From an uncultured Candidatus Saccharibacteria bacterium (GTDB lineage: Bacteria; Patescibacteriota; UBA1384; UBA12157; JAENIV01): 44,030 nucleotides of DNA. The stretch covers positions 1-44,030 of the forward strand of contig CAYSSM010000004.1 in assembly GCA_964433905.1 (NCBI GenBank). The letters are read 5' to 3'. Positions 8,726-38,152 of this stretch are shown here, piece after piece (the stretch's first letter is position 1; each line of letters starts with the position of its first letter). The position numbers were made by a program, and so were the translations under genes. Under the pieces are notes generated by a model. That model was given only the letters and a program-made list of their open reading frames with translations. It was not told the DNA's origin and ran no database searches.

Positions 8726-9324
8726 TTTTGCTCCTTCTTAATAACCTTAAATACCTTTCCATGGCCGGGAATAATAAAATCCCCAATTTCTAAAATCTTT
8801 TTCCGGCTATTCCCAAGAACTTTTTCATCCTTAACGTAAGGATCTTTATGTTTGATTAGACTTTCATAATCAGTCTTTTGCTCGTCATTATCCATCCACC
8901 AAAAAACATCACCAGCGACAACATAAGTGCCATCATCAGTTGGAACAATTAAGGCGCAATGAAATTGATCATGGCCGGGAGTTTGAATAATTTTCAAATC
9001 AGTACCAGGAATAATATTTTTATGATCGATCTGTTTATCGTTTTCGTAAATCTCCGTATCATTAAGAACTTTGGCATTTTCGAAAATTCCGGTGAGTAAT
9101 TGATGATCTGTATGATTGTGAGTCAAAAGAACATAATCGATATCAGTTGTAGTTAATTTATTTCCCGCCAAAGCTTTAAGCAATTCAGTCCGATTGCAAC
9201 CGGGATCAACAATAATTTTTTTGCTATCACTCTCTATCAAAGTCACTGTTGAACTTGCCAACCAGCCATCGGCAATTTTCTTTGCATAACCTTGGATTAA
9301 AATTTTTATTTGATTATTTTCCAT
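8722..9324 (-). CDS. Metallo-beta-lactamase fold hydrolase
   Basis: VDPG, THNHTDH, TPGH, AGD, IPGHG; likely start MENNQ at 9324. Confidence 0.9.
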
Positions 9325-27373: not shown

Positions 27374-27392
27374 CCCCGCTCCTGGAGCGGGG
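27374..27392. repeat. REP palindrome upstream of RAYT
   Basis: ccccgctcctggagcgggg. Confidence 0.9.
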
Positions 27393-27423: not shown

Positions 27424-28092
27424 ATGAGAAGGAAAGAACAATTAAATACCAATCAGATTTATCATATTTACATCAAAAGCATTTCCGATTATAGAATATT
27501 TAATAATTCTGAAGAATTTTGTAGAATGATGGATTTATTACTTTACTATCAGATTAGAAATGAGGTTAAATATTCAGATTTTATCCAGCAAAAACAAGTT
27601 GCAGAATATGGGTTTCGTAAGTTTATTGAGATCATTTCTAAAAATAAAGAAAAGATTGTGCAGATAATTGCTTATTGTCTTATGCCTACCCATATTCATT
27701 TAATTCTTAAACAATTAGAAGAAAAAGGAATTTCGTCTTATATGGGAAGTGTGCTAAACAGCTATACACATTACTTTAATGCAAAACATAGAAGAAAAGG
27801 TCCTTTATGGGAAAGCAAATTCAAAAATATCTTGGTGATTAACGATGAACAATTAATCCATTTGACTCGTTACCTTCATCTAAACCCTACTACTGCATTT
27901 TTGACCGATAAACCGGAACAATGGTCTTTTTCTTCTTATGGAGAATATTCGTCACTAACAAACGCAAATCCTAAACTTTGCCAATACAGTGATATTTTAG
28001 AGATCAATCCACTAGAGTACAAAAAATTTGTAAACGACAGGATAGCATACCAGAAAGAATTAGCTAAAATCAAAAATTTATTACTAGATTGA
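27424..28092 (+). mobile_element. REP-associated tyrosine transposase (RAYT; Y1 HUH, IS200/IS605 superfamily)
   Basis: YHIY, AYCLMPTHIHL (HUH), GPLWESKF, YLHLNP, WSFSSY; flanked by matching palindromes. Confidence 0.93.
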
Positions 28093-28095
28093 ACC

Positions 28096-29772
28096 TTATT
28101 CAACCCGCTCCTGGAGCGGGGTTAAGGTTGCTTTAACTCTACGCACCCCAGCTGACGAGGACTCTTCTTTTATAATTTTAAAATGGCCTAAAACACCGAT
28201 TTTTTCCACATGAGGACCGCCACAAATCTCTTTGGAAAAATCACCCATAAAATATACTTTTACCTTGAAACCATATTTTTGGCCAAATTCACCGACCGCA
28301 CCACAGTTTTTAGCATCTTCAAGGCTCATTTCTTCCATTTTAACTGGCAGGTCTTCTCGGATTTTCTGATTAACAATATCTTCAACTTGTTTTAGCTGCT
28401 CATCAGTTAGTTTATCAGGATAAGAAAAATCAAATCTTAACCGTTCAGCGGTAATATTCGAACCTTTTTGATGAATATCTTCACCTAATACTTTTTTTAG
28501 GGAAGCGAGGAGCAGATGAGTGGCGGTGTGATATTTTATTTCCTGCTCTCCCCCACCAGCTAACCCGCCCTTAAACATTCCGGCCGATGCAGTACGAGAA
28601 AGATCTTGATGAGACTTAAAGGCTTGCTCAAATTGAGACTTTTCTATTTCGATACCATTTTCTTCCGCCAATTCCTCTGTCATCTCCAAAGGAAACCCAT
28701 AACTTTGATGCAAATCAAAAGCAATTTTCCCATCCAAATCATTTTTTACTTTCTCGAACTCTTTTAACCCTAGCTCTAATGTATTTCTAAACTTTGATTC
28801 TTCTTTGGTTAGCTCTTCTTCGATTATTTCTGTTTTAAAATCGTAAACATCTTTGTAAGTATTAAAAACTTCCTTTGCCAAAACTGTCGTAAAATTTTCG
28901 TTTATCCCCAGTTTCTTAGCTTTAATTACCGCCCGGCGGATTAATCTGCGAACGATGTAGCCGGCATCTTTATTCGCCGGCAAAATCCCGTCATTAATGG
29001 CAAAAACTGCTGCTTTTATGTGATCTAAAATTATTCTTTCATTAATAGGATCTTCTATTTTGAGTAATTCATACAATTTTTTACAAGGAAGCCCGAATAA
29101 ATCAGTATGAAAAACATTTTCGACATTATTAATTTTTACCAACATTCTTTCCAAGCCCATTCCAGTATCAATGCCTTTTGTTTCCAATGGACTGAATGCG
29201 CCATCTTTAACATAATATTCATTAAAAACCAGAGTCCAAACCTCAACGTCATCAATATAGACTTCTACAGCTGGACCGCATGGGCCTTCATCGCCAGTCG
29301 GTCCCCAAAAACAATCTTCACGAGGAAATTCCTTATATTTTATCTGCATCGATTCTAAGATTTGAGCCGACTCGTCATCACGAGGATTTTTATCGTCTCC
29401 TTGAAATATCGAACACCATATTTTTTCCTTATCGATGTTAAGACCATCTAAGAACTCTATTACCATTTCAATCGCTTCTTTTTTAAAATACCCTCCAAAT
29501 GAAAAGTTACCGAGCATTTCAAAAAAAGTTAAGTGAGTATTGTCGCCAACCTCTTCAATATCGGAAGTTCTAATACAAGGTTGGCATGTTACGACATTTT
29601 TAGCAGGAGCGTTTTCAGAATTTGTATAATAAGGCTTAAATTGTTGCATGCCGGCAGTCGTAAACAAAACAGACGGATCGTTTTCAGGAATTAGACTAGC
29701 GGGAGGTAATTTTTTGTGATCTTTACTTTCAAAAAAATCTAAAAATTTTTGGCGCAATTGAAATGAGTTCAT
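28096..29772 (-). CDS. alaS: Alanine--tRNA ligase, short form lacking the C-Ala domain
   Basis: LFTTAGMQ, HLTFFEMLGNFSFG, DTGMGLER, HTATHLL, EICGGPHV. Confidence 0.97.
   Translation of the reverse strand: MNSFQLRQKFLDFFESKDHKKLPPASLIPENDPSVLFTTAGMQQFKPYYTNSENAPAKNVVTCQPCIRTSDIEEVGDNTHLTFFEMLGNFSFGGYFKKEAIEMVIEFLDGLNIDKEKIWCSIFQGDDKNPRDDESAQILESMQIKYKEFPREDCFWGPTGDEGPCGPAVEVYIDDVEVWTLVFNEYYVKDGAFSPLETKGIDTGMGLERMLVKINNVENVFHTDLFGLPCKKLYELLKIEDPINERIILDHIKAAVFAINDGILPANKDAGYIVRRLIRRAVIKAKKLGINENFTTVLAKEVFNTYKDVYDFKTEIIEEELTKEESKFRNTLELGLKEFEKVKNDLDGKIAFDLHQSYGFPLEMTEELAEENGIEIEKSQFEQAFKSHQDLSRTASAGMFKGGLAGGGEQEIKYHTATHLLLASLKKVLGEDIHQKGSNITAERLRFDFSYPDKLTDEQLKQVEDIVNQKIREDLPVKMEEMSLEDAKNCGAVGEFGQKYGFKVKVYFMGDFSKEICGGPHVEKIGVLGHFKIIKEESSSAGVRRVKATLTPLQERVE
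28104..28120. repeat. REP palindrome downstream of RAYT, within the last codons of alaS
   Basis: cccgctcctggagcggg inside a longer aacctt...aaggtt hairpin. Confidence 0.9.
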
Positions 29773-33248: not shown

Positions 33249-33665
33249 TTATGGTAAATATTTGTTATAAATTTGTTCTTCGCGGAATTTATTAATTTTT
33301 TGAGGTAGAATTTTAAAATAAAAATAAAGTAAATAAATTGACCAGATGATAAAAACTAATATCAATATTAACAGAAATAAACGGCTACCTAAATATGGAA
33401 TTTGCTGAAAACGAAAGAAAATTAATACCAAACCTGAAATACCCGTATAGAAAAAAATATTGAAAAACCGTCCTTGTAAACTGCTCAAAACCGGCAGATT
33501 TTTCTTTTTCTTGCCGTAAATAAACCAAAAAACAATGGCTAAAACAATAAACAACCCGAAAACAATCGCAAGATAAAGATAATCTGAATTGGCTGACGGC
33601 GTTTTTTCAAAAATGTAAGAAGGCTCGAATAACTTTTTGGGATTAATATTTTTAAACAATTCCAT
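33249..33665 (-). CDS. Three-helix membrane protein, hypothetical
   Basis: Hydrophobic helices, FFRFQQIPYLGSR, C-terminal KYLP. Confidence 0.75.
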   Translation of the reverse strand: MELFKNINPKKLFEPSYIFEKTPSANSDYLYLAIVFGLFIVLAIVFWFIYGKKKKNLPVLSSLQGRFFNIFFYTGISGLVLIFFRFQQIPYLGSRLFLLILILVFIIWSIYLLYFYFKILPQKINKFREEQIYNKYLP

Positions 33666-33735
33666 AGCGATGTCTCATATTGATATCTGAAACAATGGAC
33701 AGACTCTCAATACCACTATATGCATGCCAACAAAT

Positions 33736-33905
33736 TGCCGGGTCGCAGAATCGGACTGCGTACACGTTGACATGCGTGCCGACTTTTGCCTATGCCTGGG
33801 GCGAGGATCGAACTCGCGACACCATGATTTTCAGTCATGTGCTCTACCACTGAGCTACCCAGGCAAAAGTCACAGTCAACTGCTCTACCAATGAGCTAAC
33901 CCGGC
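33736..33905 (-). pseudogene. tRNA-like shell whose anticodon loop contains an intact tRNA-Phe
   Basis: GCCGGGT TA GCTC ATTGGTA GAGC A GTTGA [insert] TCAAC GTGTA CGCAG TCCGATT CTGCG ACCCGGC A; all four stems pair. Confidence 0.8.
33793..33864 (-). tRNA. tRNA-Phe(GAA), CCA not encoded
   Basis: GCCTGGG/CCCAGGC, CATGA-CT GAA AA-TCATG, GCGAG TTCGATC CTCGC. Confidence 0.95.
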
Positions 33906-33915
33906 AATTTGTTGG

Positions 33916-34060
33916 CAGCCATGTGCGATATTTATCCGCCAAAATCCGCACTGTAAGCAGAGGATACAATCCTCGTTCGAGTCTGAGCCTGAAGGCTCAT
34001 CCCTCAGAGTCGAAGACCTTTTACAGTAAGGATGTCGGCGGACCACTGAGCTACCCAGGC
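33916..34060 (-). pseudogene. 5' half of a second tRNA-Phe copy with D-loop interrupted by a composite palindromic element (33935-34042)
   Basis: GCCTGGGTAGCTCAGTGGT (34060-34042) identical to the tRNA-Phe 5' end; resumes as GCACATGGCTG (33926-33916) versus GCACATGACTG. Confidence 0.7.
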
Positions 34061-34197
34061 AAATATAGTTACAAGTTAAAAGTTACAAAAGAAAAAACAA
34101 TTTTCTTTGTATCTTGCATCGTATAACATATAACTTGTAATTAGGAGGCTGATATTTAAATCTATTTTATAATAGCAGAAAAATAATTTTATATCAA

Positions 34198-34272
34198 TGG
34201 TGGCCGCTGCAGGATTCGAACCTGCGACTTTCTCGATGTAAACGAGACACTCTACCGCTGAGTTAAGCGGCC
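34198..34272 (-). tRNA. tRNA-Val(TAC)
   Basis: GGCCGCT/AGCGGCC ACCA, TCTCG-TT TAC AT-CGAGA. Confidence 0.97.
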
Positions 34273-34277
34273 ATAAT

Positions 34278-34856
34278 TTATTTATTTTCTATTGTTATTT
34301 TTTCAATTTTATCACCGACGGCAATTTTTTTAACCACATCCATTCCTGAAATTACCTGACCAAAAAGACTATATTGTTTTGGAAGAGTAGGTTGATCGTC
34401 TAAACAAATGAAAAACTGCGAACCATTAGTATTGGGACCGGAATTAGCCATCGCAACCGTCCCCGCTTTGTATTCACCTTCAACTTTTTCATCGTCAAAT
34501 TCATATCCCGGACCGCCGGTGCCATCGCCTTTTGGATCTCCCCCCTGAATAACAAACCCTGGCACAACCCGATGGAAAGTTAACCCATCGTAAAAACCTT
34601 TTTGAGCCAAGTAAATAAAGTTGCTGACAGTTATCGGCGCCTTATTGGCAAATAGCTCAAATTCGATTGTGCCTTTACCAGTTTTAACCACCGCTTTTTT
34701 GTTTTGAATCATTTCGCCCGATAAAAGTCCCGGGAATTCATAAGTCATATTACTCTCCTTTAGATTTACAGAATCCGATTTATTTTTATTACTAAAACCA
34801 TAATAAATAATTACCCCAACGATTAAAAGTATAATTATTATGCCAATATTTTTCAT
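34278..34856 (-). CDS. Cyclophilin-type peptidyl-prolyl isomerase, membrane anchored
   Basis: FYDGLTFHRVVPGFVIQGGDP, AMANSGPNTNGSQFFI. Confidence 0.96.
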   Translation of the reverse strand: MKNIGIIIILLIVGVIIYYGFSNKNKSDSVNLKESNMTYEFPGLLSGEMIQNKKAVVKTGKGTIEFELFANKAPITVSNFIYLAQKGFYDGLTFHRVVPGFVIQGGDPKGDGTGGPGYEFDDEKVEGEYKAGTVAMANSGPNTNGSQFFICLDDQPTLPKQYSLFGQVISGMDVVKKIAVGDKIEKITIENK

Positions 34857-37540: not shown

Positions 37541-37615
37541 GCGAGAGTAGTTCATCGGTAGAACGTCTCCTTGCCAAGGAGAAGGTAGCGGGTTCAATTC
37601 CCGTCTCTCGCTCCA
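37541..37615 (+). tRNA. tRNA-Gly(GCC)
   Basis: GCGAGAG/CTCTCGC TCCA, TCTCC-TT GCC AA-GGAGA. Confidence 0.97.
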
Positions 37616-37664
37616 CATCGCTATCGTTCGGTGTAAACTAAGCTTGCATTGAACGAAGCAAAAT

Positions 37665-37738
37665 GGCCTGATGTCCGAGTGGCTAGGAAGCGGTCTGCAA
37701 AACCGCGCACGCCGGTTCAATTCCGGCTCAGGCCTCCA
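37665..37738 (+). tRNA. tRNA-Cys(GCA)
   Basis: GGCCTGA/TCAGGCC TCCA, GCGGT-CT GCA AA-ACCGC. Confidence 0.97.
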
Positions 37739-37810: not shown

Positions 37811-38152
37811 GTGAGTAAAAAAGGTAAATCAAAATTCCATCGCCAAATAAGAGCTCGGATTCTCCAAGAAATGGTTAAAACTCAAGCTCAATCAGTATCA
37901 ACAACTGAAATATCACCTGCAGCTAAACCGATATTGCCACCTCAAAAAACCGAGTTCACACCCGCTCCAGGAGCGGGATTACAGGTTGGTTTTGGTACTT
38001 TGCAACTAGTCCGCGCTGATTTAAAAAAATCAGCCATTATTATCGGCTCAATTATATTAGTCATCATTGCGTTAGCGATTATTGATACTAAAACAGGCAT
38101 TCTTTTAAAAGCAGGCAATAGTATTTTTAAAACACTCAATATTGGAGTCTAA
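37811..38152 (+). CDS. Small membrane protein, hypothetical, carrying an in-frame REP copy
   Basis: AAGGAG RBS, basic N-terminus, VRADLKK plus TM helix; cccgctccaggagcggg at 37961-37977. Confidence 0.75.
   Translation: MSKKGKSKFHRQIRARILQEMVKTQAQSVSTTEISPAAKPILPPQKTEFTPAPGAGLQVGFGTLQLVRADLKKSAIIIGSIILVIIALAIIDTKTGILLKAGNSIFKTLNIGV

Follow-up and report, generated by a model that had tools for sequence, protein, structure and literature searches.

We analysed a locus at which tRNA genes lie one inside another, in a contig of an uncultured Candidatus Saccharibacteria bacterium (genome G000; GenBank assembly GCA_964433905.1, contig CAYSSM010000004.1; the stretch of 44,030 nucleotides (nt) is called the window below). 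Three generations of tRNA-Phe are stacked at one site on the minus strand (34060-33681), between a gene for tRNA-Val(UAC) and a conserved open reading frame (ORF). It is probable that the locus arose by two successive replacements of tRNA-Phe, in each of which a whole new gene was inserted into the anticodon loop of the old one. The three layers, two-level intermediates, turnover at the syntenic site and recurrence of the pattern across the class and across isotypes were all observed.

Three layers of tRNA-Phe at one site

The elements of the locus are, in the order of the minus strand:

34198..34272, minus strand: tRNA-Val(UAC), the upstream synteny anchor (ARAGORN; Rfam 72.4 bits)
34043..34060, minus strand: outer (oldest) tRNA-Phe, positions 1-18, comprising the acceptor 5′ strand and the start of the D arm; 18/18 identical to the inner tRNA
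33935..34042, minus strand: palindromic element of 108 nt in the D loop of the outer tRNA-Phe, with 22-nt arms that are 82% complementary
33972..34017, minus strand: 46-nt multi-copy palindromic core of the 108-nt element, with copies elsewhere in G000 and in other genomes
33916..33926, minus strand: outer tRNA-Phe, end of the D stem, 5′ strand of the anticodon stem, and C32-U33-G34; 10/11 identical to the inner tRNA
33906..33917, minus strand: left arm of a perfect 12-bp inverted repeat around the shell (repeat search)
33873..33905, minus strand: 5′ half of the shell (middle) tRNA-Phe, to G34; 33/33 identical to the intact tRNA-Phe(GAA) of metagenome contig L319
33865..33872, minus strand: left flank of the inner tRNA, 8 nt; the left arm of an 11-nt inverted repeat is 33871-33861
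33793..33864, minus strand: inner intact tRNA-Phe(GAA), CCA not encoded (ARAGORN; Rfam RF00005, 73.7 bits)
33771..33792, minus strand: right flank of the inner tRNA, 22 nt, made up of the right arm 33791-33781 and 10 further nt
33736..33770, minus strand: 3′ half of the shell, with the 3′ strand of the anticodon stem, variable loop, T arm, acceptor 3′ strand and A73
33725..33736, minus strand: right arm of the 12-bp inverted repeat, including A73 of the shell (repeat search)
about 33681..33716, minus strand: decayed 3′ half of the outer copy, with variable loop, T arm, acceptor 3′ strand and former CCA (by eye)
33249..33665, minus strand: downstream ORF of 138 aa, a synteny anchor (ORF scan)

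The initial annotation had described a tRNA-Phe within a shell within a third tRNA copy, and all three layers were present at its minus-strand positions. Every repeat that it named (the 12-bp pair, the inner stem and the 108-nt element) was recovered by repeat search. A spacer of 8 nt separates the 108-nt element from the point where the outer tRNA-Phe resumes (33926-33916), and this resumed piece has an orthologous counterpart in contig L319 and in genome G002. The left 12-bp arm runs unbroken into the acceptor helix of the shell, so that the 12-bp pair and the shell acceptor stem together form a 24-nt inverted repeat with 92% complementarity (33720-33743 / 33899-33922). The inner tRNA is flanked by a perfect 11-nt inverted repeat (33781-33791 / 33861-33871); its left arm overlaps the first 4 nt of the inner tRNA, and the right arm is complementary to this whole left arm, the 4 tRNA nt included. 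The insert between the two halves is 102 nt long in the shell (33872-33771, replacing AAAA) and 170 nt long in the outer copy.

The 380-nt strand folded at -163.7 kcal/mol, compared with -122.1 +/- 6.1 kcal/mol for 100 shuffled sequences (z -6.8), none of which equalled it. Its minimum-energy structure consists of stacked nested cloverleaves.

The inner tRNA, the shell and the outer copy

The inner copy was called by ARAGORN as tRNA-Phe(GAA) at 33792-33865 and scored 73.7 bits against RF00005, for which the gathering score is 29. The gene is intact and lies with inverted-repeat flanks in the anticodon loop of the shell, as had been read from the letters. It is the sole tRNA-Phe found by ARAGORN in G000 (751 kb, 47 contigs, 90.7% complete) and is 95% identical to the plain tRNA-Phe of G001, which belongs to another genus.

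When the insert was removed in silico, a check that the initial annotation had proposed, the collapsed shell was called a tRNA by ARAGORN in 8 of 8 variants with a 7-nt loop (scores 105.9-115.0; the 44 real tRNAs of G000 score 110.6-127.0), and all four stems still pair. The loop of the intact form is CTGAAAA, of which the shell retains only CTG, and the collapsed variants read Cys, Tyr or His. The shell had indeed been described as lacking a readable anticodon, and the 7-nt loop with a fitting anticodon expected of a working gene was not found in it. The shell is a tRNA-Phe of a different sequence type from the inner copy; uninterrupted genes with the same body and the CTGAAAA loop occur in G008, in G002 (inner copy) and in L319. 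Its 5′ half, identical to L319 over 33 of 33 nt, has one difference from the intact tRNA-Phe(GAA) of G002, and its 3′ half (33736..33770) is 1 nt off the intact genes of both L319 and G002, in the T loop.

The T loop of the shell reads TCCGATT, with C at position 55 instead of the usual conserved U. The initial annotation had reported this loop correctly and called it atypical. It is no mark of a pseudogene, because it was found in 6 of 17 plain tRNA-Phe genes of relatives, and also in three intron-bearing ones:

L003, L004, L006, L007, L009, L015: tRNA-Phe loci with the TCCGATT T loop
L026-L028: further tRNA-Phe loci with the TCCGATT T loop

The outer copy, too, is a tRNA-Phe, and its sequence type is that of the inner copy. 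Its 5′ part from 34060, the D-loop element and the resumption of the tRNA were as the initial annotation had given them, but the copy is not confined to a 5′ half: a decayed 3′ half was recognized by eye at about 33716-33681. Compared by eye with the 3′ halves that are still intact in the outer copies of G002 and L319, it shows changes that are mostly C to T.

One syntenic site in related genomes

The initial annotation had suggested comparing related genomes of the candidate phyla radiation (CPR). At the syntenic site, the family holds plain, intron-bearing, two-level and three-level forms. A plain tRNA-Phe is present in G001 and G004, and a group I intron lies between U33 and G34 of the tRNA-Phe in G006 and G007; in 7 of 8 split loci examined in relatives, RF00028 matched at 50-75 bits. 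G002, a member of the window's family, carries a two-level nest. In G003, a new tRNA-Phe gene adjoins an old one full of hairpins. The tRNA-Phe locus is preceded by tRNA-Val in G013 (ARAGORN and sequence) and, as read by eye, in G003, and it is followed by ORFs with similar starts (by eye) in G001, G002, G003, G004, G006 and G008.

Contig L319 was the one contig obtained by searching metagenome contigs with a degenerate junction pattern; the exact 24-nt pattern matched none. It carries the outer type of the window with a D-loop hairpin in the same place, and an intact tRNA-Phe(GAA) is enclosed. Its outer copy begins with the same sequence as the outer piece 34043..34060. L319, G002 and the window share the outer type, the break after G34, the D-loop hairpin (smaller in G002 and L319, at the equivalent place of the outer tRNA-Phe) and related flanks. 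L319 and G002 are the two-level state that is predicted to have preceded the last insertion. In the orthologous middle layers of G000, G002 and L319, the flank sequences differ while complementarity is kept in each pair.

Structure of the inserted units

An inserted unit consists of a left flank of 8-20 nt, a whole tRNA and a complementary right flank, often with a second small hairpin. The cassette tRNAs of the window's family have no encoded CCA. In the inner layer of the window locus and in G002 and L319, the right flank is complementary to the left flank together with the first 2-4 nt of the tRNA (nt 1-4 in the window). In the middle layer of the window locus, the right flank forms a seamless extension of the acceptor helix by 19-20 bp.

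The break points cluster at positions 31-37 of the anticodon loop, regardless of the anticodon. The break is 34|35 for Phe in the window's family and in G033, and 35|36 in the Met, Thr and Glu nests. In the Ile(GAT) nests it is at position 37, with 3-4 nt duplicated, and in one Phe family it is at 31/32, with a second hairpin after position 39. With regard to features of miniature inverted-repeat transposable elements (MITEs), inverted flanks were found in 18 of the 26 cases discussed below, with differing sequences, and among the best-preserved nests the junctions ranged from 9 nt lost to 6 nt duplicated.

Recurrence across the class

A pattern in which a tRNA 5′ half is followed too soon by a tRNA start, and which needs a well-kept D arm, was found at 38 places in 29 of the 162 genomes of the class; the reversed control gave none. 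An intact tRNA follows in 28 of 29 distinct loci, the isotypes being Met, Ile(GAT), Ile(TAT), Phe, Thr, Val, Ala and Arg. Nesting reaches three levels at some of the loci.

Among 26 cases of the class, a downstream 3′ half was present in 11, complementary flanks (p<=0.02) in 18, and both in 9. Of the 50 cases with a 5′ fragment and a tRNA among the matches listed from viral contigs, none had the 3′ half and two had complementary flanks. Around the plain tRNAs of G000, complementary flanks were seen in 3 of 36. Paired flanks are thus far commoner around inserted tRNAs than around plain ones.

In each of the all-species and viral scans, 80 of 120 listed stretches were parsed. Among the matches listed in the all-species scan, 41 of 81 were trivial, the motif lying in the 3′ acceptor strand of a whole tRNA itself, and were dropped; at least 26, at 25 loci, had a 5′ fragment with an inner tRNA, and 10 of these loci were in CPR-named records. 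Candidate matches outside CPR were in Psychromonas, Ramlibacter, Micromonospora, Terriglobia and a metagenome-assembled genome of Clostridia.

Further nests in G000 were recognized by eye:

C2:43330-43620: tRNA-Ile(TAT), three levels
C1:51230-51480: tRNA-Ala(CGC)
C17:6230-6700: tRNA-Glu(TTC)

Other unusual tRNA loci were seen in passing. On contig C6 of G000, about 230 nt upstream of tRNA-Lys(TTT) (8866-8939), lies a tRNA-Lys pseudogene whose D, anticodon and T loops hold arrays of 12-nt mini-hairpins, each with a stem of 4 bp and a loop of 4 nt. At L048 (G015:C38), a tRNA-Met with a GC-clamped stem takes the place of the T arm of an older tRNA-Met, not of its anticodon loop. Many plain tRNAs of G000 (for example, window 37541-37738) share a TTTACATTGAGCGAAGCGAAAT-like leader and a CTCGCTTCGTTCGGTGTAAAC-like trailer, which are partly complementary.

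Probable replacement by insertion into the anticodon loop

The nested structure was probably built in two rounds. A cassette of about 95 nt, made up of a tRNA-Phe of the other type and short inverted-repeat flanks, would have split the resident tRNA-Phe after G34, killing the resident gene and supplying its replacement in the same event. A second cassette, carrying the present working tRNA-Phe, would then have split the replacement at the same place of the anticodon loop. The disabled copies would have persisted as shells, decayed, and gathered hairpin repeats such as the 108-nt element of the D loop. We infer that every layer came in from a related lineage as a separate DNA cassette with hairpin flanks, and that insertion was directed at the end of the anticodon hairpin and not at any specific sequence. 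The shells are most probably relics. The initial annotation had suggested that resident tRNAs are time and again invaded at their loops, or replaced, by other tRNA genes; this is supported by G002, by L319, by the forms at the syntenic site and by the 29 of 162 genomes with the pattern.

A broader version of this proposal, which we put forward tentatively and hold to be somewhat less likely than not to be correct, is that CPR bacteria harbour an undescribed class of mobile DNA: tRNA cassettes of about 100 nt with complementary arms that home to the tip of the cognate anticodon hairpin, and kill and replace the resident gene in a single step. Such cassettes would nest like Russian dolls because each replacement gene is a fresh target.

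Several observations weigh against replacement by cassettes. The junctions vary, with clean joins, 1-9 nt lost, or 3-6 nt duplicated, and the cassettes of G000 have no common terminal repeat. No mover of the cassettes was found in G000: the tyrosine integrase PF00589 had no match there, and genes for Y1 transposases (Y1_Tnp) do not track the nests, being present in 15 of 29 genomes with the pattern and 72 of 133 others. In its intron mode, ARAGORN called only the inner tRNA in the native sequence and not the shell. The relic view does not explain why pairing of the flanks has been kept in G000, G002 and L319 despite their different sequences, nor why the first 18 nt of the outer copy are unchanged when its 3′ half is heavily changed. 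The pattern counts are lower bounds, biased toward nests with preserved 5′ halves and D arms.

Possible copying in place

The nests might instead have been generated in situ through errors of replication or repair at the hairpins of the gene itself, the flanks by fold-back or template-switch synthesis and the additional layers by out-of-register recombination of the outer with the inner copy. This would account for outer and inner copies that are nearly identical in G008 (L054) and G064 (L038), for two successive layers with the same flank in G064, and for right flanks that pair with the left flank and the first 2-4 nt of the tRNA or extend the acceptor helix; it also fits with the lack of an enzyme that tracks the nests. 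However, the layers of the window locus alternate between two sequence types and have different flanks, the inner tRNA has 95% identity to the plain gene of another genus (G001), and it would be left unexplained how a whole gene first came to lie in its own loop. We consider copying in place unlikely.

Possible hairpin transposition

A specific mechanism for insertion, rather than an alternative to nesting, would be that the cassettes are hairpins like repetitive extragenic palindromic sequences (REPs) or REP doublets forming hairpins (REPINs), with a tRNA in the loop, and that REP-associated tyrosine transposases (RAYTs) of the Y1 type move them as single-stranded DNA into hairpin tips. G000 has eight PF01797 (Y1, IS200/RAYT-like) transposase ORFs, seven of which have their own short GC hairpin on both sides. 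Two Y1 proteins that were tested match NF047646 (REP-associated tyrosine transposase) at 57-60 bits, below its curated cut-off of 80. One such gene is in the window:

27424..28092, plus strand: RAYT-like Y1 transposase gene (PF01797, 33.2 bits in the genome search and 32.1 as protein; NF047646, 56.7)

It is a candidate mover of hairpin repeats. Its hairpins are at 27374-27392 and 28103-28121, with a third copy at 37960-37978. One of the Y1-flanking hairpins has seven copies in G000, and its arms (CCGCACC / GGTGCGG) are, among the matches listed, the flank motif of cassettes in G013, G039 and several named CPR records. A REPIN/RAYT layout, that is, a gene with its cognate hairpin and further copies of the hairpin, is thus present in G000, with scores under the NCBIfam cut-off.

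The match between hairpin arms and cassette flanks makes transposition of a single-stranded hairpin an attractive mover, and hairpin repeats do occur in the D, anticodon and T loops of dead tRNA genes. Nevertheless, the Y1 genes showed no association with nests among the 162 genomes, as counted above, and G062-G065, G033, G013 and G035 are nested without Y1_Tnp. The flanks of the window locus (33906-33917 and 33865-33872) match none of the seven hairpins of G000 by eye. The likeness to REP/REPIN-RAYT systems thus lies in short GC-rich hairpins, in RAYT-like genes with a hairpin of their own, and in the arm motif common to some cassettes, and the difference lies in the absence of a cross-genome link between Y1 genes and nests. 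Moreover, REPINs have no cargo gene and are not known to occur in tRNA loops. On balance, this mechanism seems doubtful.

The possibility of a functional shell

It has been proposed that the shell is a processing scaffold, or it could be an intron-type or split tRNA that is joined once the inner tRNA has been excised. The four paired stems, the folding of the strand as a nested cloverleaf and the kept flank stems speak in favour of this. We nonetheless regard a functional shell as very unlikely. The collapsed form has no Phe anticodon; G001 and G004, close relatives without a shell, manage with a plain gene; and the outer copy and many other shells are decayed. Splicing by proteins is unlikely because the splicing endonuclease EndA (PF01974) and the ligase RtcB (PF01139) had no match in G000 (90.7% complete), while both searches matched control genomes. 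As to a bulge-helix-bulge motif at the exon-intron borders, the loop remnants, viewed by eye, lie opposite one another without a stagger of 4 bp. A role of the flanks as insulators was not supported either: when the flanks were shuffled, the probability of the inner cloverleaf was 0.868 and 0.879, compared with 0.928 for the native sequence, in what is a weak test.

Archaea have multi-intron, split or permuted tRNA genes, which are broken at loops and sometimes in several places, according to the accessible part of PMC4090602. Their pieces are spliced by EndA and a ligase, whereas these enzymes were not found in G000 and the broken copies there are without anticodon.

Integrative elements and group I introns

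The nest could also have been left behind by integrase-type elements at phage or island att sites, or be a decayed group I intron with a captured tRNA; either origin is highly improbable. The tRNA genes are classic integration sites, and for fragments the accessible part of PMC9897764 names only integrase- and CRISPR-derived ones. As with the integrative elements in that part of the source, the window has an insertion in a tRNA gene, incoming DNA that restores the tRNA, and fragments that remain. However, integrative elements are kilobases long, encode an integrase and duplicate only the 3′ part of the tRNA, with the partial copy at the far end. The cassettes of the window are about 95-102 nt long and consist of a whole tRNA with inverted-repeat flanks; the old halves abut the roughly 100-nt insert, nesting is repeated, and no PF00589 was found in G000, where one PF00239 resolvase is on another contig than the window. 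The layout of an att site, in which a long element is bounded by direct repeats, one a whole tRNA and the other a partial 3′ copy, was not seen. Classical integration is thus unlikely, because the integrase was not found in G000 and the geometry is wrong; in addition, none of the 50 viral-contig cases with a 5′ fragment had the 3′ half, among the matches listed.

Group I introns are frequent in tRNAs of metagenomic lineages (10.1101/2020.01.27.920355; also the accessible part of PMC8172020) and often borne by CPR tRNAs (PMC8172020, in the same part). In favour of a decayed intron, relatives have a group I intron in the same tRNA-Phe loop (the 7 of 8 split loci above) and G000 has one in tRNA-Asn. 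Against it, the intron lies between U33 and G34 and the cassettes of the window's family lie after G34, one nucleotide apart; only about 30 nt of non-tRNA sequence are left; and RF00028 had no match in 33500-34300 at E up to 10. An intron-bearing tRNA resembles the nest in that the anticodon loop of an essential tRNA gene is interrupted and function is nevertheless kept, and both forms occur at the tRNA-Phe site of the family. There, splicing is by a ribozyme; here, no ribozyme is present, the split copy is dead, and rescue is at the DNA level by a second, whole gene.

Two further observations concern these introns. The tRNA-Asn(GTT) of G000 (C2:18733-19062) contains a 255-nt group I intron (RF00028, 68.8 bits) and is absent from the plain ARAGORN list. 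By eye, the flanks show a weak likeness to the ends of the group I intron, of which they might be remnants.

Nested, layer-in-layer insertions are known for transposable elements. The layering is alike, but the insert in the window is a copy of the very gene that it splits. In the literature searched, in which subscription journals were not covered, no description was found of a tRNA gene nested in a bacterial tRNA gene, in line with what the initial annotation had said.

Assembly of the locus

The initial annotation had named misassembly of tRNA repeats as a danger and proposed mapping reads over the junctions; metagenome contigs (not reads) of other runs were compared and support the locus. 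In run X1, contigs match 33500-33832 and 33830-34300 without any difference, and 33803-33859 is spanned by a piece of 57 nt. Run X3, of the same study as X1, agrees fully over 33836-34272 and has 4 differences over 33564-33761. Run X5, of a second study, covers 33838-34199, and run X6, of a third, 33885-34047, both with 0 differences. The best-covering run may be the source sample; the two other studies agree on the 5′ side. The contigs break only within the inner tRNA, whose words occur in other organisms too.

A false join of tRNA repeats from mixed strains, which the 22-nt stretch shared by the starts of the outer and inner copies and the ending of public contigs inside the inner tRNA might suggest, is extremely unlikely in view of the segments reproduced without differences in several runs, the 57-nt bridge, the nests in the single-contig genomes G004 and G035, and the ordered intermediates G002 and L319.

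The palindromic element of the D loop

The 108-nt element in the outer copy folds on its own at -49.9 kcal/mol. Neither it nor the flanks in the nest had a meaningful Rfam match (window 33500-34300, E up to 10), and the 46-nt core had none; weak matches to Plastid-ycf2, FTX and HPnc0260 in that interval were rejected as tRNA antisense or chance. Its 46-nt core has four further copies in G000 (C31:2930-2975, C34:4392-4437, C5:23031-23076 and C6:7678-7727), copies with 85-98% identity in G057, G059, G022, G032, G049 and G013, and others in many contigs of four groundwater metagenome runs. No hammerhead-like motif was seen in the core by eye. Among the G000 copies, two fall within long ORFs of 462 and 383 aa, and another is intergenic. 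Rickettsia palindromic elements sit inside genes, and the 46-nt core is like them in being a palindromic repeat lodged inside genes, here the two long ORFs of G000.

Implications

In bacteria, tRNA genes are usually deemed stable, vertically inherited and compact. At the window locus, an essential single-copy gene appears to have undergone at least two replacements, each of which left its record at the site. Many genomes and isotypes show the same pattern, and the process would therefore be a general one in a large, little-known group. The ordered series at one site (plain, intron, two layers, three layers) makes it directly testable.

There are consequences for annotation. ARAGORN can report "ghost exons" near true exons, which have been regarded as errors in a study that maps group I introns in tRNAs (10.1101/2020.01.27.920355). 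Shells give rise to ghost exons and to false calls of introns or pseudogenes, and genes that lie nested may go unnoticed.

The nesting points to an undescribed way of replacing tRNA genes. It bears on the evolution of tRNA sets in reduced genomes, on horizontal exchange of tRNA genes, and on how selfish DNA can reside in essential RNA genes without splicing. If a mobile class of tRNA cassettes does exist in CPR, it would be a second means, beside self-splicing introns, by which selfish DNA resides in essential tRNA genes, and would allow lineages to exchange tRNA genes.

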